A stretch of DNA of 64,000 nt from a virus (IMGVR_UViG_3300031992_000077:13329-77328); one strand, 5' to 3'; shown: positions 122 to 63,123, numbered from the stretch's first letter. Made by a program: numbers and translations. Notes: generated from the letters alone by a model not told the origin.

Positions 122-484
122 TTAATTTCTATTAAAAATTAATGCTTCATTAACAACTTCGGAGTCGTCATTCACATTTAATTTATTATTCCAAAATAAT
201 TTTTCTGCTATAGTAACATGGATTTCAGGATTATTAATGTGATTTAAAATCTAATCCCTTAAATTGTCATTTACAAACGGCAAATCCTATACATACGCGC
301 GCCCATCACCAATTTTTATTGCGGGCACAGCGATAACTTTTTCAACTCCATCTATTATTTTTTTAGTAGTCGCATAGTCATTATAAACTATAAGTTCACC
401 TTCTAATGGAATAAAACCTCTTGCGCTATTCCAATTAGCAGTTGTATCTCGCTTAAGTTTAATTCTAGCCTCTTTAACTCCCAT
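122..484 (-). CDS. Mtd N-terminal/hyaluronidase-N-like tail-fibre domain protein, 120 aa (2 TAG=Gln)
   Basis: Track ORF 287..484 continues through TAG: ...KIGDGRAYV(Q)DLPFVNDNLRD(Q)ILNHINNPEIHVT...NRN-TAA; contains the LKRDTxANW...GE...KIGDG pattern. Confidence 0.7.
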
Positions 485-496
485 ATAAACACCACC

Positions 497-820
497 TTAA
501 TATATTGTAGTGGTACTTGTACCGCAATCTAATATTAAATTCTCAAATTCATCATCAACATATTCTTTTTTTGCATAATCTGTACCATCTAATAAATCTT
601 CTACTTTTACAGTAGATAAAAGTTCTAACATTTGCTCACTAGTAATACCAAAATATTCTAGTTCCAACCAATGCCTAACTCCATCGCCTATTTTCAAACC
701 ATATACATCATATGCAAATCCAGGTTCTCCTAAAGCTAAAACTGGATTAACTTCATTCCATTCTGCTTCAGTAGCGCGGCGCAGTTTAAATACTGTCTTT
801 AAGACTTTTTTCGTAACCAT
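497..820 (-). CDS. Mtd N-terminal-like domain protein
   Basis: LRRATEAEWNEVNPVLALGEPGFAYDVYGLKIGDG pattern; start moved to ATG 820 behind a GGCGGTG RBS. Confidence 0.7.
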   Translation of the reverse strand: MVTKKVLKTVFKLRRATEAEWNEVNPVLALGEPGFAYDVYGLKIGDGVRHWLELEYFGITSEQMLELLSTVKVEDLLDGTDYAKKEYVDDEFENLILDCGTSTTTIY

Positions 821-974
821 ATACATCACCGCCATCAAAAATAATTATTAAATCTAAATCAATATCAGCCTCACTATTTATCGCATGAAAATCGCCCTTA
901 AAATTTACTTCTTCACTACTAGATTTAAAACTAGTTTTGAAATAACTATCTATAGTTTTCATTCTGCTTTTCAT
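786..974 (-). CDS. Small hypothetical virion-associated protein
   Basis: GGTGAG RBS; start overlaps the upstream TAA; ends IIFDGGDVYG, like neighbouring small tail-module proteins. Confidence 0.5.
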   Translation of the reverse strand: MKSRMKTIDSYFKTSFKSSSEEVNFKGDFHAINSEADIDLDLIIIFDGGDVYGYEKSLKDSI

Positions 975-1306
975 TAAATCTCACCATCCAGTAAAACATC
1001 ACCGAGCCTATCTTTCATTACATCGCTTGCTAAACACTGTCCATTTGTTAATTTAACTCGAATCTAAACTAAAATAAGAGAATCGCGCTATCTATCAAGC
1101 CAGCTATATTTTTCAAAAGACAAAGTATCTTCTTGCGAAAGCTATAAAGTGATTGTTTCTTCATCGGGCTAAAAAGTTACATCTGATAATTCTTTAGTAA
1201 AACAAACTTTTCCTTTCTAAAAATAAGTAATTTTTAAAACGCTTACTTCATTTTGGTCAAAAGGAAAATAAAATATATGTTTCGGAGTTGTGCCTCTGTA
1301 AGTCAT
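974..1306 (-). CDS. Conserved phage protein, 110 aa (RGTTP...TYxQ...VQIR type; 5 TAG=Gln), absent from the ORF track
   Basis: AAGGAG RBS; MTYRGTTPKHIFYFPFDQNEVSVLKITYF(Q)KGK...LILV(Q)IRVKLTNGQCLASDVMKDRLGDVLLDGEI-TAA; open only if TAG is sense. Confidence 0.75.
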
Positions 1307-1328
1307 ATTCTTTACTCCTTATATCTTC

Positions 1329-1472
1329 TTAAATAATCTAATACTCACCATCATACACTGGTGGTATTATATCTTTTGGAATAGTAATAATTCCTTTAAG
1401 TATTTCATCATCCGCGGATAATTTTCCAATTAAACTCTCAACCGCAGATAACTTTCCAATTAATTTTTCCAT
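1329..1472 (-). CDS. Small protein with duplicated LIGKLSA motif, 47 aa (1 TAG)
   Basis: GAGG RBS; MEKLIGKLSAVESLIGKLSADDEILKG...PPVYDGEY(Q)II-TAA. Confidence 0.55.
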
Positions 1473-1473
1473 C

Positions 1474-2035: not shown

Positions 2036-3163
2036 ATGAAAGGTTATGTTGATGGTTTTGACTGGTATAACGCAGAAGCCATGAAATACTGGAGTATCCC
2101 TTCGTCTTATAGCGCAGAAAAAGGAAAAACTGAAATTAAAAATGCTATCTTTAGCGGACGTTATTATGGGGCACTTAAAGTAGACGGATATTATCAACGT
2201 CTTATTAAGGATGAAGACGGTAACTGTTTTATGGTTGCGCGCTCAAAAAATGTAAAAGGTGAACCAACTGATAAATACGACTGGGTTCCGCAGCTTCATA
2301 AATTTATGGATAGTTTACCTAATGGAACCGTTTTACTTAGTGAATGTTATTTACGTGATAATGAAGGTTCACAAAAAATAACTAGTCTACTGGGATGTCT
2401 TAAAGATAAATGTATAGAGCGGCAAAAGAAAGACCAGTGGCTTAGCTTTTATATTTTTGATATTTGTGCTTATAACGGTAAAAATTTAATTAATACTCCT
2501 TTTAAAGAAAGAATAGATATTTTAATAGACCTCTCATTTAAATATAAAACCGCGCCACTTAATAGTGTATGTTCTTGTATTACTTGGGCTGAATATTTTT
2601 ATGGAGAATCTTTATGGAACGAATTACAGAATTACCTAGCTAGCGGGCGAGAAGGTGTAGTAATTACACGAGAAGATTGTCCTATTTATTTTAAGCGCAC
2701 CCCAGCGCACATAACAATTAAAGTCAAAAAAGAATTACGAGAAAGCCTAGACTGCTTCTTTACAGGGCGCGCGACGCCTCCGACCAGAATATACAGTGGT
2801 ATTAGCCTGCCCAGTTGGGAATATTGGGAAGACCCGATTACAAAAGAAAAACTTAAGGGTAATTATTATAGAGAATATATGAACGGCGCGCCGATTGAGC
2901 CAGTTACTAAGTCTTATTTTAATGGAATGGCCGGCAGCCTAGAAATAGGAGTTCTTCGAGATGGAAAAGTATATCCTATTGGTTATCTTAGCGGTCTTAG
3001 TGACGAAATTAAAAGTAACTATAAAGAATATACTGGAAAGTGTTTAGAAGTTGGGGCAATGCAATTTACAGAAGGGAATAATGCATTAAGACACGCGAAA
3101 ATGATTAGACTTCGTCCTGATCTTAATGTAGAAGATTGTACTTGGGAGAAACTTGGATTGTGA
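2036..3163 (+). CDS. lig: ATP-dependent DNA ligase (no TAG)
   Basis: Motif I ALKVDG, YIFDI, EGVV, C-terminal OB-fold ...LRHAKMIRLRPD. Confidence 0.9.
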   Translation: MKGYVDGFDWYNAEAMKYWSIPSSYSAEKGKTEIKNAIFSGRYYGALKVDGYYQRLIKDEDGNCFMVARSKNVKGEPTDKYDWVPQLHKFMDSLPNGTVLLSECYLRDNEGSQKITSLLGCLKDKCIERQKKDQWLSFYIFDICAYNGKNLINTPFKERIDILIDLSFKYKTAPLNSVCSCITWAEYFYGESLWNELQNYLASGREGVVITREDCPIYFKRTPAHITIKVKKELRESLDCFFTGRATPPTRIYSGISLPSWEYWEDPITKEKLKGNYYREYMNGAPIEPVTKSYFNGMAGSLEIGVLRDGKVYPIGYLSGLSDEIKSNYKEYTGKCLEVGAMQFTEGNNALRHAKMIRLRPDLNVEDCTWEKLGL

Positions 3164-3534
3164 GTAGTTACGAAGAACAAGTGGCGCTTATATTAAAAAA
3201 AGAACGTATAAAATTTCAAAGAGAAAAAACCTATTCAGATTTAAAACACGGTAGGTTTAGATATGATTTTTATTTACCTACTTTAAATTTTTTAATAGAA
3301 TTAGATGGGTAGTTTCATTGGAATCCCATACGTGGAGAATAGGAGTTAAAAAAATAGCGCGAGCATGATAGATAGAAAAATTCCTATGCACTTGCGCATA
3401 ATATACCTTTATTTAGAATCCCGTATTGGGATTTAGATAGCGGCGTTATAAAAACTTTTAATGACCTTATTCAAAAAAAATATCATGTAGTTAATAAATG
3501 GCATAATGATAGAATAAAAGTCCCAAAAAAATAA
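3160..3534 (+). CDS. DUF559/Vsr-like PD-(D/E)XK endonuclease, 124 aa (4 TAG)
   Basis: GTG overlaps the ligase stop; RFRYDFYLP...IELDG(Q)FH...HDR(Q)KNSYALAHNIPLFRIPYW-...TAA. Confidence 0.75.
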
Positions 3535-4159: not shown

Positions 4160-5233
4160 ATGGAATATATTATTTATTGTATTCTTGGAGTTTTACTATT
4201 ATTTTTTATTGTTCTCTTTTTTAGACAGCAAAAATAGAATAAATATTTATTAGAAGAAAATAAAAAAATAGAAGAAAATAAATTAGAAGAATTAAATTAG
4301 AAATATAATAAAAGAAAGGAGTTCCTCGAAGAAGATTATAATAAAAAATAGGAGTATCTTCAAGATTAGTATAAAAAAAGAGAAAATCAATTATATCAAG
4401 ATTTCTATCAAGCGCAATAGAATTATAATGAAATAACTGAAAATTTAAATTAGAATTTTAAAAGATATAAAGAGTCCTAGTATAAATTAATACAAGAAGA
4501 TTTAGAAGAATATAGTAAAAATGAAAAATTTAAAAAATAGATTGAAATAGAAAAAAATACTTAGGAACTTTATGAACAATATATAAAAAAACAAAAGCTA
4601 CTTGAAGAAGAATTTCAATCTAAAAAAGCAGAAATAGAATTTGAAATAAAAGAAACTTATGATGATGCCGCAGAAGCTGCGTTAGAATACTGCGATATAC
4701 TTGAAACTTTAGATGATTTTCGCAGACGGCGCGAGGTCGTAAATTCATAGGTATTGCGTGAAAAACAAATACAAGAAGAAAAAGATTTTTATCGTATTTG
4801 TCTTAGTTAGAATGATATAGAAGACCTATAGATTATAAAAGATATAGAACATAAATTTAATAATAAAGAAGTTCTTCATAAAGCGGCTTTTGACTGTTAT
4901 GTACGACGGCCGCTATCTGAGATGGAAAAACGAGTCTTAGGTAATAAAAAACCAAGTGGAATTTATATTATAACCTATATTCCTACTGGAGAAATATATA
5001 TAGGTCGTTCAACTGATATAGCAAATCGTTGGACAGAGCATGTAAAAAGTGCGTTTAATCTTGGTACTATCGCGCATAGCTCTCTCCATACAAAGATGGA
5101 AGAAAAAGGAATTTGGAATTTTACTTTTTAGATTTTAGAAGAAGTTTCAAAAGAAAAATTAAATGAAAGAGAGAAATATTGGATTAATTTATATGGCGCG
5201 ACAACGCTAATGAATTAGAAATAGGGTGGATAA
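4160..5233 (+). CDS. Membrane-anchored coiled-coil protein with C-terminal GIY-YIG nuclease domain, 357 aa (many TAG)
   Basis: AGGAG RBS; N-terminal TM helix MEYIIYCILGVLLLFFIVLFF; long E/K/Q-rich coil; SGIYIIT...IYIGRS...RWTEH; ends LMN(Q)K(Q)GG-TAA. Confidence 0.75.
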
Positions 5234-6811: not shown

Positions 6812-7558
6812 ATGAGTAAATTAAAAAATGAAATTGGAAATACATATGGGTATTTAACAGTTATAGGGCGCGCGCCGAATAATAAAGATGGTCGCGCAAT
6901 GTGGAAATGTAGATGTAAATGTGGGAATGAAATTATAGTTTCTGGGAAACATTTACGTTCTGGTAATACTAAATCTTGCGGCTGTTATTAGAAAGAACGT
7001 GCGATTGAATCAAATCTTATTAGGGGCGGAGATTTAACTGGAAAAAGATTTGGTAAATTAGTAGTTTTATGTGAAGATGGTTTTATAACTGGTTCAAATG
7101 GAAAAAGACGTAGATTATGGAAATGTCAATGTGATTGTGGGAATATTTGTTCTATTCAACACCAATATTTAAATTATGGCGATACTACTTCTTGTGGTTG
7201 TATTAATTCAGTAGGAAATATGACAATTACAAGATTATTAAATAAATCTAATCATAAATATAAAGCAGAATATTCTTTTAAAGATTTTATTTGTAATACC
7301 AAACCATATCAATTCGATTTTGCTCTTTTAGATAATGACGATAATTTGTTAGGACTAATAGAGTATCAAGGAGATATTCATTTTGTATATAAAGATATTG
7401 GTTGGAATACTAAAGAATCTTTTGAAGAAAGAGTAAAACGAGATAAAGAAAAATTTAATTATTGTAAAGAACATAATATAAAATTATTTTATATTACATA
7501 TAAAGATGATATAGAAGAAAAATTATAGGAGATATTAAATGAGTTATACAGCAGATGA
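6812..7558 (+). CDS. Free-standing homing-endonuclease-like protein: two CxCxCG...SCGC repeats plus C-terminal PD-(D/E)XK domain (2 TAG)
   Basis: WKCRCKCG...TKSCGC and WKCQCDCG...TTSCGC repeats; FDFALL...LIEYQGDIH...KRDKEK; reads through TAG 7526 to TGA 7556-7558, overlapping the gyrB start. Confidence 0.75.
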
Positions 7559-10320: not shown

Positions 10321-10490
10321 TTAAATATATCTGTGATAAATGTGGTAAAGAAATAGATAAATTTTTATTAAGAGATTGTATGATTATGTCAGTTACTGGA
10401 CGTTATGCAAGATATGATAAAAGTGAAATCATATTATGCGAAAATTGTAAGGAAAATTTCAATAATTGGATAGGTGATACAGATGAGTGA
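10317..10490 (+). CDS. Small zinc-ribbon protein, 57 aa
   Basis: MIKYICDKCGK...ILCENCKENF; below the ORF-track size cutoff. Confidence 0.6.
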   Translation: MIKYICDKCGKEIDKFLLRDCMIMSVTGRYARYDKSEIILCENCKENFNNWIGDTDE

Positions 10491-12837
10491 ATTAAAACCA
10501 GTAATTGAACAATCTTTCGCGCAATATGCTGGCATGGTAATTCAATCCCGTGCGCTTGTTGACGCGCGCGATGGGCTCAAACCTTCTGCACGCCAAATCT
10601 TCTATTCAATGCTCCTTCATAAACTCACTCATAATAATCCCTATAAGAAAACTGCTAATGCTGTTGGTATGGCCATGGCAGATTTCTATATTCATGGCGA
10701 TTCGAGCTGTGAAGGAATTATTATGCGCGCCGGTCAGAACTTTGCTATGCGTTATCCGCTCGTAGATGTAAAAGGTAACTCTGGCTCTCTTATTGAAAGT
10801 GGTAACTGGGCCGCTATGCGTTATACGGAGAGCCGTTTGTCTGCGCTTTCTAATATTCTCTTTACAGATATTGATAAAGATACCGTAACGGAATGGCGCG
10901 ACAGCTACGATAATACAAAACAATACCCAGCGGTTCTTCCGTCAAAAGGTTTTTATAATCTTTGTAATGGTACAAGTGGTATCGCAGTAGGTCTTGCAAG
11001 TTCTATTCCGCAGTTTAATTTAAAGGAACTTAATAATGCGCTTATTAATCTTATTCAAAATCCAGATTGTGATTTTGATGATATTTACTGCGCGCCTGAC
11101 TTTGCTACTGGCGCGGTTCTACTTAATGCAGATGAAGTAAAAGAGAGTTTACGTGCTGGTAACGGGCCGGCTTGTAAATTGAGAAGTGTTGTTGAATTTG
11201 ATACGGCTGAAAGATGTTTTGTAGTAAAAGAAATTCCTTATTCTGTTTATACAAATACTATTTGTAAACAGCTTGAAGAACTCATAGAATCAGAAGAGAA
11301 CCCTGGAATTGAACGTTTTAATGACTTAACTGGCGCGACGCCTTTGATTAAGATTTACCTTGCAAAAAAAGCAAATCCAGATAAGGTATTAAAGTATTTG
11401 TATAAAAATACTTCACTCCAGTATTACTATGGCATTAATCTTACTATGCTTGATGGTGGTAAATATCCTAAAGTATTTACATGGCGCGAAGCTCTTCAAG
11501 CGCATATTGACCACGAAAAAGTTGTATATCGTCGTGGCTTTGAACATGATTTGAATAAGATGAAGTTTCGTGTTCATATTATTGAAGGGCTCTTGATTTG
11601 TATCGCGCGCATTGAAAAGGTCATTCAGACAATTAAATCTTCGAGTTCTACCGCAGAAGCAAGCGCGCGCCTTCAAAAAGAATATCTTCTTGATGCCGAC
11701 CAAGCAAAGGCAGTCCTAGACTTAAAACTTAGCCGATTAGCGCACCTTGAAGTAACTAAGCTGAACGGCGAAAAAAATGACCTACTCGAAAAAATTGGTG
11801 CAATCGAACAAATTTTAAATGATGAAATCCTATTTAATAATGAGCTTATTAAGGGTTGGAAGGAAGTTGCCGCAAAATATGGCGACGCGCGCCGTACACA
11901 CATATTAAATATCTCGAAAGAAGATGAAGAGGAACCGACTGAGGTTCGTAATCTAATTCTTAACTTTACAAATAAGGGCGGAATTTATGTAACTGAAAGC
12001 TCTTCTCTCTATACACAGCGTCGAGGCGGAGTTGGAAGTAAGTTTAAAATGGAGAAAGGAGAATATATTGTTGGTACTGAAACCGGTGATAATACCGATA
12101 TAGTTCTATTATTCTCCGATAAAGGAAATTTCTTCCAAATTAAAATGAGTGAATTTCCAGTAAATGAAAAAACTTACATAACTCAATTTATTACTATGAC
12201 GGCGACAGAATCTATTTGTAACGCCGCAGTTTATGCGAAGAATGAAAATAAGAATATTTATTTTATTACAAAGAATGGTTTACTTAAAAAATCTCTCTTA
12301 TCTGAATACTACCTTAAACGTGGTAATAGCGCCCGCGCCATAAATCTTGACAGTGATGATGAAATAGTAAGTGTATTCTTTGGAAATGATAACCTTGATT
12401 GTGGTATTCTTAGTAGCGATGGAAACTTTATCATGTTTAAAACTGATGATGTAAAGCCTATTGGTCGTATAGCACGCGGTGTAAAAGCTATTAAACTTAA
12501 TGACGGAGCTTTCGTACAAGATGCTCGAATGATACCAAAGGATACTAAAACTATTATCTCTGTAACAAAGAAAGGTCTAACGAAACAAACAAATATAGAT
12601 GAATTTTCTTATACAAATAAAAATACAAAAGGTTCTAAAATCCAAGGTTTAACAACAGATGATATGGTAGTTTCTTTTGATGCACTTAGCGCGGAGACTG
12701 AAATTATTGTTACATCTACTACATCACAGATACGAGTCGCAGCGGCGGAAATCCCAATGCTTTCTCGTTCAGCGCAAGGAGTTCATGTAATAAAACTTAA
12801 ACCGTTGGAACAAGTAATTCAGATAGAAAAAATTTAA
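10483..12837 (+). CDS. gyrA: DNA gyrase subunit A (no TAG)
   Basis: DGLKPSARQI, IHGDSS, AAMRYTE active site, C-terminal beta-pinwheel repeats with GyrA-box-like QRRGGVG. Confidence 0.93.
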   Translation: MSELKPVIEQSFAQYAGMVIQSRALVDARDGLKPSARQIFYSMLLHKLTHNNPYKKTANAVGMAMADFYIHGDSSCEGIIMRAGQNFAMRYPLVDVKGNSGSLIESGNWAAMRYTESRLSALSNILFTDIDKDTVTEWRDSYDNTKQYPAVLPSKGFYNLCNGTSGIAVGLASSIPQFNLKELNNALINLIQNPDCDFDDIYCAPDFATGAVLLNADEVKESLRAGNGPACKLRSVVEFDTAERCFVVKEIPYSVYTNTICKQLEELIESEENPGIERFNDLTGATPLIKIYLAKKANPDKVLKYLYKNTSLQYYYGINLTMLDGGKYPKVFTWREALQAHIDHEKVVYRRGFEHDLNKMKFRVHIIEGLLICIARIEKVIQTIKSSSSTAEASARLQKEYLLDADQAKAVLDLKLSRLAHLEVTKLNGEKNDLLEKIGAIEQILNDEILFNNELIKGWKEVAAKYGDARRTHILNISKEDEEEPTEVRNLILNFTNKGGIYVTESSSLYTQRRGGVGSKFKMEKGEYIVGTETGDNTDIVLLFSDKGNFFQIKMSEFPVNEKTYITQFITMTATESICNAAVYAKNENKNIYFITKNGLLKKSLLSEYYLKRGNSARAINLDSDDEIVSVFFGNDNLDCGILSSDGNFIMFKTDDVKPIGRIARGVKAIKLNDGAFVQDARMIPKDTKTIISVTKKGLTKQTNIDEFSYTNKNTKGSKIQGLTTDDMVVSFDALSAETEIIVTSTTSQIRVAAAEIPMLSRSAQGVHVIKLKPLEQVIQIEKI

Positions 12838-12952: not shown

Positions 12953-13219
12953 ATGAAGTTGACAGAAAAGCAGGCAATGGTATTCAATTATGTTAAGGAG
13001 AACGGTGGTCGTGTTGCGATGGAGGAGCTTTGTGCTGCTCTGGGTAGTGATGCTAAGCACTTGAATCCCGTTGTTACTGGTCTCGGTGTTAAGGGCGAGC
13101 GCGCTAAGGGTCTGTTGGATTATGAGAAGATTCCTGTGGAAGGTTCTGATAAGCCGGCAAAGTACGTGTTCCTGACCGAAGCTGGTAAGACTTTCGTTCC
13201 TAGTGATGACGAAGAGTAA
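12953..13219 (+). CDS. Small winged-helix-like DNA-binding protein, probably highly expressed
   Basis: LTEKQAMVFNYVKENGG...helix-turn-helix...YVFLTEAGK wing pattern; AAG/GAG-rich codon usage; strong RBS. Confidence 0.6.
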   Translation: MKLTEKQAMVFNYVKENGGRVAMEELCAALGSDAKHLNPVVTGLGVKGERAKGLLDYEKIPVEGSDKPAKYVFLTEAGKTFVPSDDEE

Positions 13220-20293: not shown

Positions 20294-23200
20294 ATGGAAT
20301 ATACAGGCAGTATTCATACGCATACGGATTATAGCAATATTCGTCTTAGGGACTGTATCATCAAGCTAGAAGACGGAATTGCGTATGCAGAAAAGCTTGG
20401 ACATAAAGTAATTGGTATAACTGACCATGAGTTTACTGGTTCTTGGGTCAAAGCAAAAAGAATAGCAAAAAAACATCCAGATATTAAAGTTATACTTGGT
20501 AATGAAATCTATCTTTGTCGTAATGGTTTAAACGCGCAAAATTATAATAGAGAGTATGATAGATATTATCATTTTATACTTTTGGCAAAAGATCGAATCG
20601 GCGCGCGGCAAATAATGGAAATATCTACACGAGCTTGGAAGCGTTCTTATATGGCGCGAGGTATGCGTAGAGTTACGACATATTACCAAGATTTGTTTGA
20701 TATAATTGGTACTAATCCTGGTCACGTGATTGGTAGTACTGCTTGTTTAGGCGGCGCGCTGCCAACACAATTACTACGTTATAGGGATAGTAATAACGAA
20801 ATATTGAAGGAAAAGATCGCTATTTGGATAGAACAAATGAACGGTCTTTTTGGTGATGGTAATTTTTATTTAGAACTTCAACCAAGTAAAAATAAAGACC
20901 AAATTTATGTAAATCAAAGATTATTAGATATATCTAACGCAACAGGCATACCGTATATCATTACGACTGACTCTCATTATCTTAAAAAAGAAGACCGTAT
21001 TATTCATAAATCTTATCTTAATGCGCAAAATGGTGATAGAGAAGTTGATGAGTTCTATGCAACAACTTATATGATGGGAACAGAAGAATTAGAAAGTTTT
21101 TTTAAATATTTATCGCGCGAACAGCTCGATAAAGCATATCAAAACATCCAAGATATAGCTGATAAATGTGAAGAATATTCTCTTGAGAAGCCGTTGCGTA
21201 TTCCTAACTTAAAGTGGAAATCAATTGAAAAAGAACCAGATGCTTGGGGATATGAAGAAATGTGTATGAAAATCCCAATGCTTTGGACTTTTGCAGAATC
21301 TCCATATGAATCTGATAGATATTTGGTAAAAGCAGTAGTGCATGGTATTGATATACATCCAGACCTTCAAAGCCAAGAAGCATATGATGAAATTAATGCA
21401 TGTCTTGAAGATACGTGGGTTTCATCAAATGTCAATAATGCAAGATGGAGCGCATATTATCTTAATCTTCAGCGTATTATTGATGTATGTTGGGAAGCTG
21501 ATAGTATCGTAGGTCCAGGGCGTGGGTCCGGCGTAGGATTCATATTATTGTATGTATTGGGTATAACACAGATTAATCCTATGCGTGAAAAGACTAAAAC
21601 GTATAGATGGAGATTTTTGAATCCCGCGCGAGTATCAGTACTTGATGTCGATTTTGATATTGAAGGTTCAAAACGCGCGCAAGTATTATCTAAATTTAGA
21701 GAAGTCTATGGCGAAGATTATGTAGCAAATGTAGCAACTTTTAGAACTGAGAAGTCTAAATCTGCTATATTAACTGCGGCACGTGGTTTAGGTATTGATG
21801 TAGACATCGCGCAGTATATTGCAAGTCTTATCCCCGCAGACAGAGGATTATTGCGGAGTCTTGACCAGTGTATGTATGGCGATGTGGAAAATAATTTTAG
21901 TCCAATAAAACAATTCGTTTATGAAATGACTGAGAATTATCCAGAACTTTGGCAAGTTGCGCATGGAATTGAAGGTTTAATTTGCGGTAGTGGCATTCAT
22001 GCAGGTGGAGTTATTTTTGTAGATGAGCCATTCACGGAATCTACTGCATTGATGCGCGCGCCCGATGGTACGATTTGCACACAATTTGAATTGCATGATA
22101 GCGAAGCAGTTTCTCTGATTAAATATGACGCTTTATCGGTTGAAGCGATGGATAAAATTCATAATTGTATTAATCTTTTGTGCGATTATGGATATGCAGA
22201 ACGAAAAAATAGTTTAAAAGAAACTTACGAAAATATAATAGGTATATATAATATAGAGCGGGACGCGCCAGATATGTGGAAAATGGTTTGGAATCATGAG
22301 ATTCAATCTCTATTTCAAATGGAAAAACAATCTGGTATAGCAGGTATCGCGCTCTTAAAGCCCACATCTGTAGACGACTTGGCGACTTTGAACTCTGTTA
22401 TTCGTTTGATGGCGCAAGAAAAAGGTGGCGAAATGCCAACGAATAAACTCGCGCGATTTAAAGCGAATCCAGAACTGTGGGATAAAGAGATGGAGAATTG
22501 GGGTTTAAATAGTGATGAACGCGCGATCCTTCATAAAGAACTTGATACATCTTATGGTATTTGTGAATCACAAGAAGGATTTATGCAGCTAGTACAAACT
22601 CCGGAATGCGGTGGATTCGATTTGACATGGGCAGACAGATTACGTAAAAGTATTGCTAAAAAGAATCCAAAAGAGTTTGACCAACTTACGGAAGAATACT
22701 ATCAAAATATAAAAGATAAGAATTTAAGTCGAAATCTTTGTGATTATGTATGGAAAGTTCTTGTTGCATATAGTCGCGGCTATGGATTCAATAAATCTCA
22801 TACTCTCGCATATAGCCTTATTGCTTTACAAGAAATGAATCTTGCATATAAATATCCTATTATTTTTTGGAACTGTGCGTGTCTAATTAACGACGCGGGC
22901 GGAGACGAAACAACAGATGATGAAGAAAGTAACTTTGAGGAACCGGTGGAAGTTTCTTGGAACAATGAAATAGAAGATTTTATATTAGATTCAGAAGACG
23001 AAGATGATGATGATGACGACGAAGAAGAAGTAAAGGATAAAAAGAAAAAGAAAGCTAAGAAAATTAACTATGGTAAGATAAGTAGCGCGATTGGAAAGAT
23101 GAAAATGGAAGGGATTAATATTTCTCCTCCCGATATTAATAAATCTATCTTTACTTTCTCACCCGACCCAGAAAGGAATATTATTCGTTATGGCCTTAGC

Positions 23201-24265: not shown

Positions 24266-25335
24266 TAATTGGTTTATGGGATGCAGATTTTATGAAATAT
24301 AAGTAGCCAGTTTTCAATTTAGAGCTTATGAAACTGGCTACTTATTATAAATAGAAAAAAGATATAGTTAAATTAGCCCCAGTATTAGACCCATATAAAT
24401 ATACAAAATTTATTTATCGTAAAGATTGGGATGATGGAGATTATCCTAAAGAAATTTTTTTAGATAATGTGACCTACGGCGGGCGCGCCTTTGGAGAAAA
24501 ATATAAATCATTAGGTATAAATATAGAATCTGTAACACCAGATACATATTTATATTAGAGTTTTATTAATGAATTTCATGGTGCGCAATTAAATCATTTT
24601 AAAATGATGTAGAATTCAGCCCATATTAGACTTTCATTAGATGGGGAAACTATTTGGAAAGATTATAATAAAAGTTTTAATTTTACTAATACAACACGTA
24701 GTTTTTTCTTTCATGATTATGATTTGAATAAAATATAGAATAGTGCAGAAGAAATAAAAAAAATAATTGAAAGTGACGGCAGTAAAGTTAGTCGAGTTGT
24801 TGGTATGAAATTTCCAGTATAGGTTAATAATGAGATAGATTTGGCTCGGTGGCTAGCATTACCAGGCGCGCAAGTATACTATTCAATTTAGTATAATGGG
24901 ATTATGAATGATAAAGCTTTTTAGGTCTTTTTGTCAGGAAGTAAATTATAGAGCCGTAACTTAGACTATATTGTAACTTCTTCACTATCGGGAGAGGATG
25001 ATTTTGTCAAGAACGGACTACCAATAATTTATAAATAGCTCTTAATTTCATAGATGCATAAAAAAAGAATTTTACTTAAATATGAAGATGATTTTTTCTA
25101 GGATAAAAGATGGGAAGATTTAATTACTTATTTCAATGAATATAATTCAGCAGATGTTACGCGTAAATTTTCAAAAACATTATTTTACTATACTAGCCAT
25201 ATTTTAGATAAATAGTCTATATATAAACCTAAATTTTCACGAGACTACATAGCTGAACTCTTTGAGATGGTAAGAGAGAAAAATTATGATGTTTTTAAAA
25301 TGTTTTATGAAAATATAGGAGGAGATTTTATATGA
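24262..25335 (+). CDS. Hypothetical protein, 357 aa, N-terminus resembling phage radical-SAM-associated proteins (13 TAG); absent from the ORF track
   Basis: TTG with GGAGG RBS; MIIGLWDADFMKYK(Q)PVFNLELMKLATYYK(Q)...YGGRAF...TPDTYLY; no TAA/TGA in frame until 25333. Confidence 0.75.
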
Positions 25336-32227: not shown

Positions 32228-32228
32228 T

Positions 32229-32954
32229 ATGGCTTCCATAAATCTTACTACTATCTAGGAGTAGCTTCCAGAAGGTTGGAAGGTAATATCTACACAATAT
32301 AAAAACCTAGATACTGAAATGGAATTTGAGTGTGCAGCCGGCCATAAAGTTTTTTCTACTTGGAAGAAGATGCGAACACGTGCCGAATGCCCTATATGTA
32401 AAGAGAAAGCGCCGCTCGTAGATACTACTATAATTCCTAAAAAGAAAGGAATTTATCGTACCATTGGAATAGACCAGGCAACTCATATAAGCGGTTATTC
32501 AGTATATGATGGGAAAGAGCTCATTAAATTTGGAACTTTTACAGTAAATGAAACCAATGAAATAGAGCGCGATAATATAATAAAAATGTGGTTATGCTCT
32601 ATTATAAATAACTGGCAACCAGATGTAATCGGTCTCGAAGGAATTCAACTTCAGCAAAACGCCGCTCGTGGTATTGGGGTCACTACCTTTGAAACTTTAG
32701 CGCGATTACAAGGTATACTTATGGAAGCTTGTTATGAACAAAAAACATAGTTTGTGATATGCCCAACGAATACATGGCGCGCGCATTGTAAAGTTAAAGG
32801 TTAGACCCGTGAAGCTAAAAAGAATTCAATGAGATAGTTAGCGCGAGAATGGCATAATATTAATGTAAGCGAAGATGAAGCAGATGCCATCGGAATTGGA
32901 AAGTACGTTGCAGAAACATATGCTCTTACACATCAAGTCCAAAATTGGGAATAA
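32229..32954 (+). CDS. RuvC-like Holliday junction resolvase with N-terminal zinc ribbon, 241 aa (5 TAG)
   Basis: CAAGH...CPIC; IGIDQAT, IGLEG, DEADAIGIG. Confidence 0.8.
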
Positions 32955-34455: not shown

Positions 34456-34482
34456 ATAAAACTTCGGCGCCAGAAGTTTTAT
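34456..34482. promoter_or_regulatory. Intergenic hairpin inside the cassette
   Basis: ATAAAACTTC-GGCGCCA-GAAGTTTTAT perfect 10-bp stem. Confidence 0.55.
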
Positions 34483-53700: not shown

Positions 53701-56700
53701 TTCGAAAGATTCTGATAAATTTCTTTTAACAGTTTCAGCTAGTTCATCAAAAGTATAAGTAGTTTTATATTTTTCATTATAATACTATAAAACCTACTCA
53801 GGAGTAATACCCAATCCATCTGCTATAGTCTATATATCTGCCTAAGTTGGTTTTTCTTCACCAAAAGCATCTCTATAAATCTCAACTATAGAACGTACAT
53901 CATTTACAGCTAGTTCTTTGACTACACCATAATCATGGTTTGCCATATTCTAGAACTGCATATTAAGAAAATCTTCAGTAAATTCTGGCAACCCCTAACT
54001 TTTAGCATAGGCGTTTGCCCTTTGTCGCATTAGTTCTCTATACTATACACTAGTAAGTCCTTCTGCACCCATATTAGTCATGACACCAGTTTTTTCATCT
54101 AAACTGGCTCCCATGACATCAGCCCAAAATCTACCGCCACCCCATTCTTGTAAAGTTTTTAATATCTCAATACCTTTTTCCCAATCTTGTAAATCAGTTG
54201 GAGTGGTTGTAAATATAGCTTTCCAATAATTTTGAAGTTGTGGATTACCTAATTCTCTTGAACTTATTAAAGCCTCCATTGATTGAATGGCTGAATCAAT
54301 AAAATCAAAAGATTCTCCCCAATCTTCACCAGCGTCAAAATTCTTAATAAAATTCTATGCTTTACTGACTATATCAGTCAAACTTTCAAAATTATTAAAT
54401 ACTTCAAGAACATTATCATTTAAATCAGTAATTGCTATATTTCCTTTACTAAAAGCTTGAATAGCTTTAGCTAAGCCATTAGCAGACATTGTCCCTGTAT
54501 CTAATAATGCCGCGAGAGACTTACTCTCTTTAGCTAATTCTTGAATATTATATGGAGTAATTTTTCCGTTCTCTTCGATAAATTTGTCAACCTATTCATT
54601 TAAATCGCTAAATTCACCAGAAGCTAAATAGAACTATACTAAATTCTATTTAGAAAAAATACCTTCTTTTTCACCAGCGTCCTTTAACGTCTTAGCTAAC
54701 TCTGCAACTTCTTTTTTAGTATTCTAAGTTCCTTCCTAAATAGCCTAAAAAGTTAATATAATATTATCTGATAAAGAACCAATAAAATCATCTAAATCCG
54801 CACTAATACCTCCATCTTGACTCATCGCATCTATCATTGCAGATTCAACTTGATTTCTAAAATTAGCTCCATAATCGCCTAAAGTTTCACCAATTTTAAT
54901 GACTTTTTTCTACTAAACAATTTCTAATTTACTAAATTTTTGTAATGCAGCGGTATCTCTCATGCCAGAAGACATTAAAGATTTAAGAGCATTTTTAGTA
55001 TAATCTTTTCTAGTTTTTTCAATCTATTCGATATATCCATTTAATATTTTAGCTAAGCCCTCTCCATCAGTATCAAACATTTGCATAAGAGCTTTCGCAA
55101 TATCTTCATTTTTTAAAAATTCACTTATCTCTGTTCCAATATTTTCTAAACTATCTTCATATGTGCCAGAAATAATCTATAATAATTTTAAACCCTATTT
55201 TTCTTTACTTATATCTGATACTTTATCAATTAATTCAGAATATGTTTCCTTTATAATTTCTGCCGAGGCAATAGCAGAAGCTAATTCATCTTTATCCTCA
55301 GTTTCAGCCTCAACGCCATATAAATCGCTATATTTTCTTTTAAGCTCTTCCCTTGTCGCTTCACCGCTCCACCAATTAGCTCTTCGTTGCCGACGAGTAC
55401 TTTTAAAGAAAGCGTCAGAATTAAAGGTTTCGGCCATTGCTGAAGCTATAGCGTCAGACATTTCATCAGAAAGGTTACTTGTATCAAGCATTCGCGCGAA
55501 ACCGGCTTTTGCATGTGCTTTTTCTGCAGCCCGTTCCTGATTTGCTAAATTCTAATATCTGGTATATCTAGCAACCTCTTCTGGAGTCATATCCCTTACA
55601 TTGGCCGCTTGTGTACCGTCATTTTCATAAATGAGCTTGTTCTCTAAATCTATATAAGGCGACTAATATTTACTTTCATAAATTTTTGCTTGCTTTCCCG
55701 CGGCCATAGCTTTTGCTAATTCTGCGCTCTAAGCAGTTTTATTAGCAGCATCCGTAGTACTTTTAACTAAAGCATCTATTGAAGCTTCGTCTAGTGTTAA
55801 AACCAATTGCCCATTTTCAAATGTAGAAGATAAATATTGTGCATATTTAGTATTCTATTGTACTAAATCAGTAAGGTAGTCATTTCTTTCCTAAATAGCC
55901 TTATTACGTTCTTGGACAGTTTCTGCCTACTGCACCGCAGCAGTTTTTTCACCATATTGCTCTGATACCTATTTAGTCTACTGTTTTGCCTATTCCGCTG
56001 CGGTAGCAACTTTATCTAGCTATTCAGAATATTTTTTAGCCTATTTTAACTAACCTTCTAAAGAAAATTCAGACCAAGCGGCATATGCAGCAACTACAAG
56101 TCCAGCCGCCGCAGCAACTCCGCCAAGAGCAGTAGCTAAAGCTGCAGCTCCTTCAGCCATACCTTTTCCAACAAGACCTTTTACTAACCCAGTTTTAGCT
56201 ATTTTACTACCAAGCCCAGTTTTTACGAATTTATTACCAAACGCACCGAATAAAGTCTTGGGCACACCACCAATTTGCTGCTAAGCTAAAGACTTCCAAT
56301 CTTCACCTCTAGCCCAAGCTTCTTTCACACCAGGTAAATTCCAAGCAACTGTATCTTCTGGTAAAGGCGCGGCATTAGCCTCTTTAAAAGCCTGTATTTT
56401 CTTTTTTAAATTCCCATTAAAAATATCAGATAAAAGACTAGTTCTAGGCATAATAGTAGTCTTATTTTCTTTTCTAGCTATATCTTCAGCAGAACCCGCG
56501 ACTACATCTCCATTTAAATCAATACCACTAGTTAATCCACCTTTAATAATAGATTGCCCAATTCTTGAACCTTTTAGAATAGTAGTAACCGCTTTATCAA
56601 TAAAACCGCCATTACCAAAACTTCTCTTTAAAGCACCAAAAGTTTTAATAGCAACTGCCCATTTTAAGAAAGAACCTGCGCCGCTACCGAGCGCACCAGT

Positions 56701-58653
56701 AAGTTTATTAACTATCTATAATAATTTTGTAAGTGCATCAACAGCACCCTTTAAGACCGCGTTATTCGCAAGACCCATCGCAAATTCATCCCACGCATTC
56801 TTTAAACGCGCGAGTTTTGATTGCATAGAATCCTAAGTCTTTTCAAATTGCTTCTCTGCAGCACCATTACTATTATACGCCGCACTAACTAATTCTTGTG
56901 TACGCGCATAATCTGCCATCAATGCAATAAAACGAGACTGTTGACGAGAGCCCGCAGCCTATGTTGCGATATATCTCTATTGAATATTAGTAAGTGAATC
57001 CCACTTAGAGGCTAATTCAATAAATATATCATCTAATCCAACTTCACCAAGGAAATATTTGTTTAAATCAATTCCAGCAGTACGAAGCGCGGCAGATACT
57101 TTATTAACATCAATTACTTGCCCTTCTTCATCCTAACCTTTTAATTCTTCTTTATCATAAAGTTTCTTAACTTCAGAAAATCTAGCTACAACTGTCTTTA
57201 ACGCAGTACCGGCAGTTTCAGCAGATTCTCTTGTGCTTTCAATAATCTATGCCAAGAACGCCGCAGTAGTTTCAAACTCCATATTAGCGTTATGCGCCAA
57301 TGAAGCTACCTTGGTCATAGCAGTAGAAATTTCGTCTACATTAGAAGCAGACATAGCCGCTAACTGAGAATACACATCATCTACTCGTTGCGCCTATGCT
57401 GTATTTAATTCCATATTAAAACCACGCAAAGCGTTAGTCATACGGTCAGTAGCATCTGCCGCGTCAAGACCCGCAATACGCGCCATCTTCAATGTCTCAG
57501 TTGAAAGCGCCGCTGCCTATTCTGTATTTAAGCCCTACTGATAATACAGTGTCGCGCTCTCATAAGCTTCTTTGGTTGTTACACCTAATTGATTCGCGCG
57601 TTTTGTGTATTCTGGTAGCTACTTCCACATATCTTTAATAGTATAATTAGTAACTACCGCAGTTTCAGTCATAGCTTTATCAAGTTCTTTTATTGTACTA
57701 AAAGAACTACGAATTGCACGTTTAACTAAATTAATAGCATTTGCAAGACCAAGAAAATATTGAATACGACTTTTTACTTGGTCTAATTCAGAACCAAATT
57801 GACCAGCACTTATGGTTAAATCTTTAAGAGGTTTTTCAGTATTTCTAGTTTCTTGAGCCAATTGACTCATAGTATTAGTACAATTACTTAATTGATTATT
57901 AAGTTCTTGCGCTGCCTATGTAGAAATCTAAAGCCCTTCACTCTATTTAAAATCTATTTTTCCCTATATATTCTAAGCTTCTTTTTCGGCTTCTTTCATT
58001 ATATTAATAATAGCCTAATACTAATTGATAATTTCTTTGGCAGTTTGATTTCCTTTTCCTTCGCCAGAAGCCAATCCAGTATAACTTTTTTTAGCTTTTT
58101 CTATTAAATCTATAGCTCTCTAAATATCTTTTACATCTGTAGCACCCTTAAAAATATCTAAAGCATCAGTAATTTTCCCTTTAGACTTTTCAGTCTTAAG
58201 TTTACTCATTACCTATTCTATCTTTTTCAGCCCGTCCGGTGTAATATTATTTAACTATTTCTATAAATCTTCTATTTCTTTTTTAATGCCTTCTAATTTC
58301 TATTTTACACTATCATCTATTTTTATCCAATTATTTAAATCTATCTAATCACCAAACTAGCTTCTGATTTTCTATACAATCTAATCATACTTTTCCATCC
58401 CAGCAATTACTTTATCAAAAGATTTATTAATTGCTGTGGCATCAGCTTTATTTTTTATACCCTAACGACTTTTTGCCTAAAAATCATTTAAAGCTTTATC
58501 TAATTCATTAAAAGCATTATTAAAACTACTACGTAAATTATCTGGTAATTTCAAATTATTTAAAGTAGTTTGGATATTTTTAATTTTTGCCTAGGCATCC
58601 CCAGCATCAAATAAAGCTTTAATATTAACGGTATAACTCGTACTGTTTCCCAT
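50743..58653 (-). CDS. Tape measure protein, about 2636 aa (very many TAG)
   Basis: TP901-type core ETAVVT...ATLYYQ(Q)GL...TLKMARIAGLDAADATDRMTNALRGF...TAGTALKTVVARF; GEEGPEL motif; six track fragments share one frame. Confidence 0.9.
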
Positions 58654-60446: not shown

Positions 60447-60463
60447 GTATAATAGCCTCCTAA

Positions 60464-61222
60464 TTATTTGTCGTTATTTTTATTCATCCAATACTATACT
60501 TTAATTTTTTTGCTATCCGCACCAGCGAGTAAACTTCGAATATCAATATCATATTTTTCTTTCTATTGATATTTCTCAACTAACTTTTTAGATGCCGCAT
60601 AGCTTATCTCTCCGATATTAAGTGGATTTAAACCAATACCCATACAACAAATTGAGATTAAAGTTTCTTCAAAAGTAATTCCAATTCCTTTTTTAGCTTT
60701 AACTCTATCTCTATAACGTGCCTTTGCCTTCATTTCTTTAATACGCGGATTCTCATTTGGATTAGGGGCATCTAGTTCTTTATCACCTAACGAACGCCGT
60801 ATCGCATTTTGAAATTCAAAAAAATTATCTTGATTAATAATTCTCAATTCATTCATCATATTTTCAATACTAGAAATCTTTAAAAATTCTGTTTCTAAAT
60901 TTCCAATAACAATACTGCCTGCCGCGTACTATAAACTAACTGGTTCGCGCAGATATAACTCAAAACTATCTAAAACTTTCTTCTCAAATTCTTTATTATA
61001 TTGTGAATTACCCATTATATATGTAAATGGGTCTGGTGGTTTAATAGATTTTCCTTCATCATTCACTTTATCAATAAAATAATCTTCTAATTCTTCCTAT
61101 GAAATAGTAAGAATATTAATTAATTGTTTTGTTTCTTCTCTTAAAACCTAATTGACTGTAGGCGGATAAATAGTACATAATTCTTTAAATTTTTGCGGTA
61201 TACATAAAAATGGCTCAATCAT
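60464..61222 (-). CDS. Tail assembly/chaperone-like protein, 252 aa (TAG=Gln)
   Basis: Single frame through TAGs; located between the neck and tail-tube genes. Confidence 0.55.
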
Positions 61223-61706
61223 AAGAAGTTAAGTAGAAATACTACTCATATGCACTAATTTCTTCTGTTAAGAAGTTCAATTCAAAATCTCCGCCCTATA
61301 ACTTACCTAATCCATTTATAGTCTTTCCATTCAAAGATTCCTATATTTCTCCTAAAATAGCAAACGGGCGCAACTACACATCTTTAATTATCCACTATGT
61401 AAGCGGTACAAACACTTCAATATTAATACTTACATCTTTAAATTCACTATTTTCATCATTCTCACGCCCGCGTGTAATACGCATAGTAACTATAGAATGA
61501 GAGGTTTCTTTTGGACCAACACGAGGCACTATTTTAACTAACTTTTCAAAAACTTCATTCTATATCTATTCATCTGTTAAATCCGGCTAACTTAATGGGT
61601 CTTTATCAGTATAATATAATAATTTAAGTAATTTCTAGTTCGCTAAAAGCCGTTTCATAATCTTTTGCGCGTTCTCACCTAAATCTCTACAATTCCTAAC
61701 TCCCAT
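61215..61706 (-). CDS. Neck/tail-terminator-like protein, 163 aa (TAG=Gln)
   Basis: LLAN(Q)KLLKLLYY...INIEVFVP...RPFAILGEI; GGTGAG RBS; position in the neck module. Confidence 0.6.
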
Positions 61707-62431
61707 TAACTCTCACCACCTTTATTCAACCAATAAAAGTCGTCCGGGTTATCTCCCTATTCTTGTTCTGGTTTGGGAGAATGGTCATATACATAAATTG
61801 GGTCAATACTTACAAATTCAACCCCAGGTGTAGACTATCTATCATAACCTGTAACTCTATACGCCTCTATTAATTCTCCCTCTCCAATCTCAAAATAGTC
61901 ATCTTTATGTAAATCTTTATTGAGTGGAATAACCATAAAACTAAGTTTTAAGTTTTCAGAATATATAGTATCCATACGACTACGAGAACGAATTTCATCT
62001 TTCAACATATTATCTTCTTGGCCATAAAAATAAGCCAAAGTTGAAAAAGTCTATTCTTCTCTCTACCACGTAATCGTATGAGTCATCTTTAACATAACAT
62101 AACGATTATACCCACTGGCTTTAATATTTTCAAGCCAGTAAACCATCCAAGGGATTAATTCTAAATCCTTATTCGGAAGATAAAGAATCGTTCCAGCAGG
62201 AATATTTAAACTAACTCTAGTTAATAGATAAGCACGAGTTTCAGTTTCATCCTATTTATATCTCTCTAAAAGTCCAGGACATTCTTCATCATCATACTCA
62301 AAGTCTATCCTATAAACGCTTTTCATTAATAAATGTTCAAACTATTTCTCACGCTGAGTCTAAATTCGGGACTAATAATTTAAACCATATCTATTTAACC
62401 TTTTCAAATATATATCTTCAAAATAACTCAT
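61706..62431 (-). CDS. Head-closure/neck-like protein, 241 aa (TAG=Gln)
   Basis: MSYFEDIYLKRLNRYG...AYRVTGYDR(Q)STPGV; position in the neck module. Confidence 0.6.
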
Positions 62432-62695
62432 TTACTTTGAAAGTAATCCCATACATTCAAATATGGTCTTACGAAAATACTCATAATCTAAATAACGCAG
62501 AGAATTAGTTTTATTTACTAGTTCTACCCAGTTAATACTGCGCTCTTCTTCTGGAAAACCATAAAGTTCAATAATAATAGAGTCAAGAAATTTTTCCCAA
62601 TCTCTACCTTTCTCTTTTTCACAAAGCAAACCAAAATACTTATTCTTCAACTTATTGAAATAAGCTTCTGTTAAAATTTCACTACTACTGCTCAT
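62432..62695 (-). CDS. Hypothetical neck-region protein
   Basis: 87 aa; abuts its neighbours. Confidence 0.65.
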   Translation of the reverse strand: MSSSSEILTEAYFNKLKNKYFGLLCEKEKGRDWEKFLDSIIIELYGFPEEERSINWVELVNKTNSLRYLDYEYFRKTIFECMGLLSK

Positions 62696-62697
62696 AT

Positions 62698-63123
62698 TTA
62701 CTCTCCCGCAAGAGAAGTAAAATCAAACGGTTTACCGTCATAAGACCTATAATACACTCTTTCTAGTTTAAGTGCATTATATTTCTCCGCTTCCAACATA
62801 GACTGAAATTTTGCTAATAAGTTTGCTTGTGAAAAATCTCGCTCTTCATAAAGCGGCTTTACGTTTTCCCAAGTAAGAATAGTCCTATTTAACCACTCAC
62901 ATTTCATATAAGTAGCTAATATCTGAATCTCTATGTTACTTAAATCTTCCTCAAAACCGTAGTCCCCACGGCTAAGAGAAGTGCGAGGGAATTTAAACCA
63001 AGGAATAGCGCCTTCTAAAAGCGCGCGCAAATCCTAATTCACTTCATCCTCGGTCCAAAAACCCCATTCATCATCCAATATCTTTGCCAAAAAGGCATCA
63101 TATACAGTTTGATAAGAGGTCAT
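62698..63123 (-). CDS. Head-tail adaptor-like protein, 141 aa (1 TAG)
   Basis: MTSYQTVYDAFLAKILDDEW...N(Q)DLRALLEGAIPWF...EIQILATYMKCEW...DFSQANLL; GGAGG RBS. Confidence 0.65.

Follow-up and report, generated by a model that had tools for sequence, protein, structure and literature searches.

Among described systems the closest is the cyanobacterial HIP1 word, GCGATCGC, together with the alternate HIPs GCsGC, GGCGCC and GCCGGC (Elhai 2015, PMC4390886); a methylation-guided repair ratchet is the model proposed for HIP1 and its alternates (PMC4390886). Here, we describe a field of short G/C-only islands in 64,000 nucleotides of viral DNA (bases 13329-77328 of the 77-kb record IMGVR_UViG_3300031992_000077, estimated to be 60% complete). 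This whole stretch is the window, and the field, defined from word counts and run lists and assigned to neither strand, extends through it from 295..63030. As with HIP, palindromic words rich in GC are in great excess throughout the genome, both within and outside genes (the non-coding part is weak here), sub-lineages swap words (GCsGC is an Elhai alternate and the second word of this clade), and it is disputed whether the words serve a function or are left behind by repair. Unlike HIP, the carrier is a virus and not a cell, the word has 4-5 bp and occurs at ~5 per kb (HIP has 8 bp at ~1 per kb), the phage encodes no cognate methyltransferase (PF00145 in 0 of 29 related records; PF01555 not in this phage), and abundance follows stacking energy across an entire family of G/C-only words. 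In the literature on GCGC enrichment in phages, we found no description of such a field.

Phage restriction-site avoidance likewise acts on short palindromes, as seen in the observed-to-expected ratios (O/E) of GATC in this phage (0.07), of GCGC in its relative lineage L023 (0) and of CGCG in Enterocloster phage CB473P1 (0.11). However, the sign here is the opposite one, since GCGC is ~6x enriched and conserved, and avoidance seems only to filter which stable words are allowed. In Escherichia coli, very-short-patch (VSP) repair by Dcm/Vsr shapes CCWGG by raising the methylation site and lowering the deamination products. Unlike that case, the effect in this phage is far larger, all four positions of the word are maintained, there is no vsr gene, and the one-step neighbours GTGC/GCAC have an O/E of 0.91. 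The site-specific nicks of T5, with the consensus R/GCGCRGG as quoted in PMC3517423, share with this field a GCGC core and a virulent phage with nucleases, but they are few, strand-specific and longer, whereas the flanks here are symmetric and the sites number in the hundreds. Gyrase sites are a ~130 bp degenerate motif in which GC content varies with a period of 10.75 bp around a 4-bp staggered cut (PMC6379681), an indirect-readout pattern over 130 bp and not a 4-bp word; the islands here have Poisson-like spacing and no excess of near neighbours.

We found that a clade-specific, selection-like force acting at the level of DNA maintains GCGC and related stable G/C words at hundreds of interchangeable, randomly placed sites. 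The force is independent of codon usage, reading frame, gene class and strand, and it acts on all four GCGC positions. Most of the clade shows it; unrelated AT-rich phages and the bacterial contigs of the one candidate host bin do not. Lineages with little or no GCGC have other words, chiefly GCSGC.

The window has a GC content of 33.2% and contains 67 overlapping copies of GCGCGC and 56 of CGCGCG. For GCGCGC, base composition predicts 1.3 copies and a first-order Markov chain 3.8, and dinucleotide-preserving shuffles (n = 100) gave 4.0 ± 2.0 with a maximum of 11. The over-representation of this hexamer in both arms, which had been reported by a first-pass annotation of the sequence, is therefore confirmed; its count of about 40 was too low, and 16 of the 17 positions it quoted lie within 1-2 nt of a real GCGCGC, the exception being 2176 (nearest copy 2237). 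Among tetramers, GCGC occurs 307 times (O/E 6.3) and CGCG 252 times, and GGCC (46) and CCGG (42) match expectation. Among trinucleotides, the outliers are GCG and CGC (O/E 2.41; next highest 1.36), with ACG, TCG, CGA and CGT at 0.66. A maximal-order Markov model expects 73.7 GCGCGC compared to the 67 present, so the hexamer is not in excess given its pentamers, and alternating runs extend with a per-base probability of ~0.45. The signal sits at the 4-5 nt scale, and GCGCGC is overlapping GCGC.

Codon-based null models were run on the whole 77-kb contig (73 GCGCGC and 372 GCGC) rather than on the window. Shuffling synonymous codons within genes yielded 11.4 ± 3.5 GCGCGC (z 17.7) and 153 GCGC (z 19.6), and a shuffle that also kept the dinucleotide at the codon position 3-1 junction yielded 37.7 GCGCGC (z 7.3). 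Hence, the excess persists under codon-preserving nulls, and we rejected codon or amino-acid usage as a sufficient explanation on the basis of the synonymous shuffles. Under a dicodon-preserving shuffle the hexamer excess is gone (69.5 ± 4.2 compared to 73, z 0.8); however, this null fixes every tetramer by construction (GCGC 372 vs 372.0) and therefore shows only that the hexamer adds nothing beyond GCGC.

The motif had been placed mostly at GCG-C and CGC-G codon junctions, which holds for part of the sites only: GCGC occupies all three frames of the contig, with 152 sites as GCG-C, 144 as xGC-GCx and 76 as xxG-CGC (hyphens mark codon boundaries). GCG makes up 28% of alanine codons, and ACG, TCG, CCG, GTG and CTG make up 3-13% of their own families. 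The probability that a fourfold-degenerate third base is G/C climbs from 0.14 to 0.49 when G/C pairs flank it on both sides; relatives show the same flank-dependent rise (0.26-0.56), and a bacterial control contig does not (0.08). In the contig proteome, the dipeptides Ala-Arg (1.6x) and Ala-His (2.1x) are over-represented, and a DNA-level force may be reaching into protein sequence.

The contig has 294 G/C-only runs of at least 6 nt with a mean gap of 254 nt, and 168 of 7-13 nt with AT-rich flanks. Islands are 5-13 nt long, consist mainly of overlapping GCGC words, and occur in all three codon frames, in both arms and in early and late genes. The O/E of G/C runs grows with length, from 0.86-0.94 at 2-3 nt to 1.7 at 5 nt, 2.6 at 6 nt and 6.8 at 7 nt or more. 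For words flanked by A/T (W), O/E is 0.92-0.96 for WGCGW and WCGCW, 0.52 for WCGW, and 2.26 for WGCGCW vs 0.55 for WCGCGW. We ruled out pairing of islands into hairpins or terminators, and regular phasing, by the near-exponential, Poisson-like gaps (coefficient of variation 1.15) and the lack of any surplus of island neighbours within 20, 40 or 80 nt. Palindromy as such was also rejected: the palindrome excess among G/C-only words comes wholly from alternating GC, and lineages low in GCGC have no palindrome excess.

The favoured flanks of GCGC are symmetric (C on the 5' side, G on the 3' side), and asymmetric G/C words track the sense strand in both arms, flipping with gene orientation. These features and the Poisson-like spacing speak against a polar packaging or recombination signal, one of the candidates put forward in the first-pass annotation. 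Chi-like polarity was not seen in the palindromic core, its symmetric flanks or the asymmetric words that flip with gene orientation; known Firmicute Chi words are rare (GCGCGTG 1-2 and GAAGCGG 1-5 per strand and arm). With respect to the T5 consensus, we found neither an RGG extension of GCGC nor a strand bias beyond coding skew.

We measured conservation at silent sites in 47 orthologous genes aligned with two related genomes, G002 (82% mean amino-acid identity) and G003 (67%), scoring third positions that are fourfold-degenerate and belong to the same amino acid in each of the three genomes. Third-position G/C inside GCGC is the same in G002 at 71-82% of sites and in G003 at 46-73%. The corresponding values are 46% and 25% in runs of at least 5 nt without GCGC, 35% and 21% in runs of 3-4 nt, 35% and 13% for isolated G/C, and 65% and 54% for A/T. 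Inner and outer GCGC positions do not differ significantly from each other (p = 0.3-0.7), and both differ from the controls (p down to 4e-12). In a 23-kb three-way alignment, the codon GCG is kept at 66% inside GCGC vs 20-21% in CGCG-only or other contexts. Isolated GCGC without alternating extension is 51% conserved and CGCG 29%, sites in CGCG alone having background conservation, and in an unbiased scan of GC-rich 4-mers by conservation GCGC ranks first.

Other lineage trios, although they hold only 8-15 genes each, mostly agree: GCGC sites outdo other G/C sites (e.g. 0.64-0.67 vs 0.27-0.29, and 0.88 vs 0.16), and they have an advantage against at least one relative in every trio having GCGC sites. 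GCSGC is conserved where it is abundant (e.g. 0.66 vs 0.27, and 0.65-0.67 vs 0.15). Hence, the synonymous-site conservation that the first-pass annotation's idea of sequence-specific maintenance entails is present across related phages and is joined by the gain and loss rates below, but the unit maintained is GCGC (GCSGC in sister lineages) and not GCGCGC or alternating CG.

Individual islands illustrate both conservation and turnover. The island GCGCGCGCCCG (22054..22064, plus strand) lies in the DnaE-type DNA polymerase gene (20294-24265), and in the three-way alignment row ATTGATGCGCGCGCCCGA its core GCGCGCGC is the same in two relatives with overall nucleotide identities of 84% and 74%, with differing flanks. 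The island GGCGCGCGC (32776..32784, plus strand), in the RuvC-like resolvase open reading frame (ORF) 32079-32954, is conserved in all three genomes. The island GCGCGCGCC in the GyrA-like gene (11663..11671, plus strand) is an example of turnover (AAGCAAGCGCGCGCCTTC vs AAGCAAGTATCAAACTGC): the closer relative differs at the last base only, and the farther one has an AT-rich synonymous sequence.

We estimated rates of gain and loss at fourfold sites whose flanks are identical in this phage and G002 and at which exactly one base completes GCGC. That base is present at 0.54-0.77 for each of the four positions vs 0.11-0.13 overall. A stationary two-state estimate for the two genomes gave a gain of 0.48-0.51 (95% confidence interval 0.24-0.97) over a baseline of 0.08-0.10 and a loss of 0.29-0.39 compared to a baseline of 0.75, so the motif-completing base is gained ~5x faster and lost ~2x more slowly. 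The two genomes differ at 25-29% of motif-competent sites, compared to ~6% by a hand estimate in which loss alone is reduced. Hence, passive slow decay is insufficient, because gain is raised and the divergence is 25-29% rather than ~6%. In further lineage pairs with at least 26 sites (pairs with fewer are uninformative), gain is 2.5-6x baseline in 4 of 5, and loss is reduced in every pair analysed. GGCC-competent sites are at baseline frequency (0.05-0.12) and GCSGC-competent sites at 0.20-0.32. Polarising gains and losses by parsimony with the third genome was abandoned because the sites are too saturated, and the two-state pairwise estimate replaced it. Such rates are the footprint of selection or of conversion biased towards the word.

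The abundance of G/C-only words follows the stability of the duplex. For words of 4, 5 and 6 nt, O/E correlates with SantaLucia stacking energy at a Spearman rho of -0.93, -0.96 and -0.94, respectively, and the values are similar in three high-island relatives; in SPbeta, Staphylococcus phage K, T4, Enterocloster phage CB473P1 and a Clostridia contig, rho ranges from +0.54 to -0.54. Silent-site conservation climbs with pentamer stacking from 0.12 to 0.65. By the nearest-neighbour parameters of RNA, GG/CC stacks would be roughly level with GC and stronger than CG; hence, the observed word order would fit duplex DNA rather than RNA.

We compared 65 related loci from IMG/VR viral contigs, many with sample numbers that we take to be those of rumen metagenomes; the complete relatives are 110-145 kb long with direct terminal repeats. 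The clade survey covered relatives with a near-full-length polymerase (55 sequences including this phage), among which GCGC O/E is mostly 3-9 and GCSGC 2-11, with 10-34 runs of at least 7 nt per 10 kb outside a weaker basal group. Lineage L023 (G010, L094-L096), sister to a lineage with GCGC at 6.1, has 0 GCGC in 60 kb, CGCG at 0.38 and GCSGC at 5.8-6.4x, and it has 10 islands per 10 kb despite zero GCGC. Its pattern resembles a complete purge of one 4-bp palindrome. In the L019 group GCGC is ~2 and the islands are of the GGCC and GCSGC type. GATC is nearly absent from this phage (16 sites, O/E 0.07-0.08, z -15.6 vs the synonymous shuffle), and its site numbers across three related genomes are 16, 67 and 209, which looks like lineage-specific restriction avoidance. 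Most simply, the stable words open to a lineage would be those that host restriction permits.

Beyond these relatives, GCGC is at 0.48 in SPbeta (with 2 islands per 10 kb), at 1.0 in T4 and at 0.5 in Staphylococcus phage K. Enterocloster phage CB473P1 (L086, OP172755.1) has GCGC at 0.9, CGCG at 0.11, GATC at 0 and GCSGC at 5.9; it is a cultured, distantly related phage without gyrase. A nucleotide search of the GenBank phage collection with one late gene gave no match. One scan of a genome collection gave a phage contig in an Erysipelotrichaceae rumen metagenome-assembled genome (MAG) and a distant Clostridia serine hydroxymethyltransferase gene, two matches that lie in named rumen and sheep-reticulum MAGs. 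In the Erysipelotrichaceae MAG RUG12586, contigs C5 and C53 (L067, L093) are phage and have the G/C-island signature, which is either a binning artefact or a host link. In the 1.8-Mb candidate bin, 40 of the 48 GCGCGC are on a 47-kb phage contig and 4 on a second phage-like contig. The four bacterial contigs of the bin, which may not be the host, have GCGC at 0-0.8, CGCG at 0-0.45 and 0-0.5 islands per 10 kb. Hence, the bias is not seen in the bacterial genes of the one candidate host bin, where its presence would have counted against the reading of the first-pass annotation.

Our preferred explanation, to which we give a probability of roughly 0.4, is that hyper-stable duplex words are favoured by selection or by biased gene conversion and that host restriction filters them. 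Selection acting weakly at many interchangeable sites, or a biased gene conversion with the same footprint, would promote short hyper-stable duplex 'clamps' in an otherwise easily melted genome, and host restriction enzymes would choose which stable words each lineage can use. More speculatively, the clamps may confine strand opening in DNA that is negatively supercoiled by the phage gyrase. Stated more broadly, we regard as tentative the idea that an undescribed, methyltransferase-independent mechanism of this phage clade writes and maintains short hyper-stable G/C words throughout an AT-rich genome, with host restriction setting the vocabulary; such a mechanism could be gyrase-tied duplex-clamp selection or a biased repair or conversion ratchet run by the phage.

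Several observations weigh against selection or conversion for stable words. Duplex clamps are without known function, and 'stability' and 'specific recognition' are confounded because GCGC, the most stable word, is at the same time a classic methyltransferase site. GCGC membership adds conservation at an equal nearest-neighbour triplet (0.58 vs 0.35, p = 0.001), and W-flanked GCGC is enriched while the almost equally stable W-flanked CGCG is depleted (2.26 and 0.55, as above). The slope of ln(O/E) vs stacking energy steepens with word length (-2.0, -2.8 and -3.5 per kcal/mol); hence, there is no simple Boltzmann relation. The rate estimates assume stationarity and homogeneous sites and have wide confidence intervals, and the pair L010-L039 has no raised gain. 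With respect to gyrase, the basal weak-island lineages also encode it, and the gyrase-less cultured relative still has GCSGC at 5.9x. Finally, the non-coding support is thin. We counted 11 non-coding GCGC vs 1.5 expected, but at least 5 of them lie in ORFs 18489-20231 and 32079-32954. The count was inflated because two regions were mis-called: the start of the RecJ-like gene (18489-18632) was cut off, and an antisense ORF displaced the RuvC-like 32079-32954. Corrected, there are ~6 GCGC vs ~1.3 expected (hand-calculated p ~0.002).

The main rival is a HIP-like ratchet, followed in decreasing order by a GCGC-binding protein, passive survival, Z-DNA and a codon artefact. In the ratchet, a host C5-methyltransferase specific for GCGC (GCSGC or GGCC elsewhere) and methyl-cytosine-guided mismatch repair would change near-cognate into cognate words and protect them, their enrichment then being a functionless by-product. 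We consider this unlikely, although its vocabulary (GCGC, GCsGC) agrees strikingly with that of the clade. The favoured words are canonical C5-methyltransferase sites, raised gain and lowered loss are as it predicts, and GCGC is replaced by alternate words in sub-lineages, as with the alternate HIPs of cyanobacteria that include GCsGC (PMC4390886). That one lineage purged all GCGC also suggests that a GCGC-specific restriction-modification system is probably present among the hosts. However, a host-run process should mark the host genome too, so the unmarked bacterial contigs of the candidate bin (GCGC 0-0.8 and almost no islands) weigh against it, with the reservation that the bin may not be the host. 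Vsr-type repair would shield the methylated C alone, yet all four positions behave alike, and the ratchet does not predict that the abundance of G/C-only words in general should follow stacking energy.

Genes for such a system were also looked for in the phages: C5-methyltransferase PF00145 and Vsr (PF03852) were each found in 0 of 29 related records, 12 of which are at least 90% complete. N6/N4 methyltransferase PF01555 is in 4 of the 29, not including this phage, and has no relation to GCGC level. These results count against the methylation or repair system of the phage that had been listed among the initial candidates. A VSP-type process was rejected because the expected depletion of one-step neighbours is not seen (GTGC/GCAC O/E 0.91), and the site does not have a VSP shape, as inner and outer positions are alike and PF03852 is in none of the 29 records. 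The gene at 28145-29377, which matches the 'methyltransferase' phrog_9968, was rejected as a DNA methylase because it encodes a full-length serine hydroxymethyltransferase (Pfam E 2e-143).

Somewhat less probable than the ratchet is that GCGC is the recognition word of a phage-encoded DNA protein (a nickase of the T5 kind, a primase start or a condensing or replication factor) and that selection keeps its density. All four positions of the 4-bp palindrome are constrained, and GCGC adds conservation beyond local stability. The T5 nick consensus quoted in PMC3517423 contains GCGC, and this phage encodes HNH and GIY-YIG nucleases, a ligase and a DnaG-type primase. Against this stand a sister lineage with zero GCGC and others with few, symmetric flanks without an extended or strand-specific consensus, and Poisson-like spacing. 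In addition, SPbeta shares the replication module yet has GCGC at 0.48, and ~5 sites per kb is far above known priming or nicking needs.

Passive survival without selection, in which a dominant G/C-to-A/T mutation (e.g. cytosine deamination, which needs strand opening) is slower in stably stacked words, is improbable. It fits the grading of abundance and conservation by stacking energy, the random placement and frame independence of the islands, and the lower loss in every pair, and reduced loss alone is enough for the pair L010-L039. However, with baseline gain a divergence of ~0.06 (hand estimate) is expected between this phage and G002, compared to 0.25-0.29 observed. The divergence D exceeds expectation by more than 2 standard errors in L007-L064, L040-L057 and L050-L045 and by ~1.6 in L003-L002, and estimated gain is 2.5-6x baseline in 5 of 6 pairs. 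Moreover, no comparable pattern is seen in AT-rich bacteria or in the AT-rich virulent phages T4 and Staphylococcus phage K, and CGCG flanked by W is depleted though equally stable.

We judge it very unlikely that Z-DNA-prone alternating CG tracts absorb negative supercoiling from the phage gyrase, another suggestion of the first-pass annotation. The islands have purine/pyrimidine alternation, their preferred flanks (C before, G after) extend it, and a true gyrase-type enzyme with a GyrA-box-like motif is encoded clade-wide. However, the B-to-Z transition in vivo needs longer alternating tracts, roughly 10-12 bp or more, and the window has 72 alternating C/G runs of 6-9 nt (58 of them 6-7 nt) and none longer than 9 nt. 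Furthermore, the conserved unit is GCGC and not CGCG, and sister lineages use the non-alternating GCSGC and GGCC. That adjoining Ala, Arg and Gly codons produce the words as a codon artefact is least credible of all, for although the synonymous null already gives 11.4 GCGCGC vs ~1.7 from composition, Ala-Arg is 1.6x over expectation and the dicodon null removes the hexamer excess, GCGC is preserved by that null's construction, z is 17.7 and 7.3 under the synonymous and junction-preserving shuffles, the motif is in all three frames, and the GCG codon is 66% conserved inside GCGC and 20-21% elsewhere.

The phage, which is uncultured and probably from the rumen, carries, as judged from its gene content, a Firmicute-phage (SPbeta-like) replication module. 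Its DnaE-type polymerase shares 37% identity with YorL of SPbeta, and the genes for Sak4, helicase, primase, RecJ and polymerase are arranged as in SPbeta. Genes of the plus arm encode a ligase, homing endonucleases, a two-subunit gyrase, a Sak4-like annealase, DnaB helicase, DnaG primase, a RecJ-like nuclease, the DnaE-type polymerase, NrdD, NrdG, serine hydroxymethyltransferase, dUTPase and the RuvC-like resolvase. The serine hydroxymethyltransferase gene (28145-29377) is grouped with those of NrdD, NrdG and dUTPase. TAG is read as a sense codon: coverage of the contig by long ORFs rises from 26% under the standard code to 83% when TAG is read through. Of the Gln-like codons, 43% are TAG, most of them in late genes, e.g. 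90 in the 2636-aa ORF 50743-58653. TAG recoding and the giant ORF had suggested a crAss-like phage, which is ruled out by the DnaE-type polymerase and the SPbeta gene order. A tie of the islands to TAG recoding or expression class was rejected too, as the excess over the synonymous null is alike in TAG-poor (2.48x) and TAG-rich (2.41x) genes and recoded relatives are both high and low in GCGC. No tRNA genes were found in the window.

The gyrase genes are on the plus strand, with the GyrB-like gene at 7539-9389 and the GyrA-like gene at 10405-12837; the latter has a GyrA-box-like QRRGGVG, C-terminal beta-propeller repeats and HGDSSCEG in its N-terminal region. Gyrase A subunit is encoded in all clade records covering the region, low-island lineages included, and in the search of the clade and controls it was absent from SPbeta and Enterocloster phage CB473P1. 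Three free-standing genes of the homing-endonuclease type are clustered just upstream of or adjoining the gyrase genes: an HNH gene at 3136-3534, a GIY-YIG gene with a long N-terminal extension at 4160-5233 and an HNH gene at 6812-7558. The 88-aa ORF 12953-13219 has no family match and the top GC content among the genes (48%; 47% at third positions).

Further islands on the plus strand include the longest G/C-only run of the contig, the 13-nt CGGCGGGCGCGCC at 24477..24489, and the 12-nt GGGCGCGCGCCG at 6866..6877, at the start of the HNH endonuclease gene. CGGCGCC at 34465..34471 (no strand assigned), in a probable intergenic spacer, is among the few islands outside called genes.

In practical terms, the island signal biases k-mer-based host prediction and binning, as seen in two phage contigs placed in an Erysipelotrichaceae bin that lacks the signature. 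The GCSGC half of the signal is present in the cultured Enterocloster phage CB473P1 and its kin, which are a possible experimental model for it. Which palindromes are forbidden and which are favoured also records, in readable form, the restriction systems met by each lineage.

Silent sites of phages are usually seen as neutral or shaped by translation; here, a force at the level of the double helix maintains hundreds of them per genome and is strong enough to be visible in rates of gain and loss and to be re-targeted when the host restricts the favoured word. If a repair ratchet is responsible, this clade would provide a second, independent system for the long-debated HIP question. If a mechanism for stable words is at work, it would be a viral counterpart of cyanobacterial HIP with a physical rationale, and if selection for duplex stability is the cause, AT-rich phage genomes, which may be supercoiled, would be under a physical constraint that has so far gone unrecognised.

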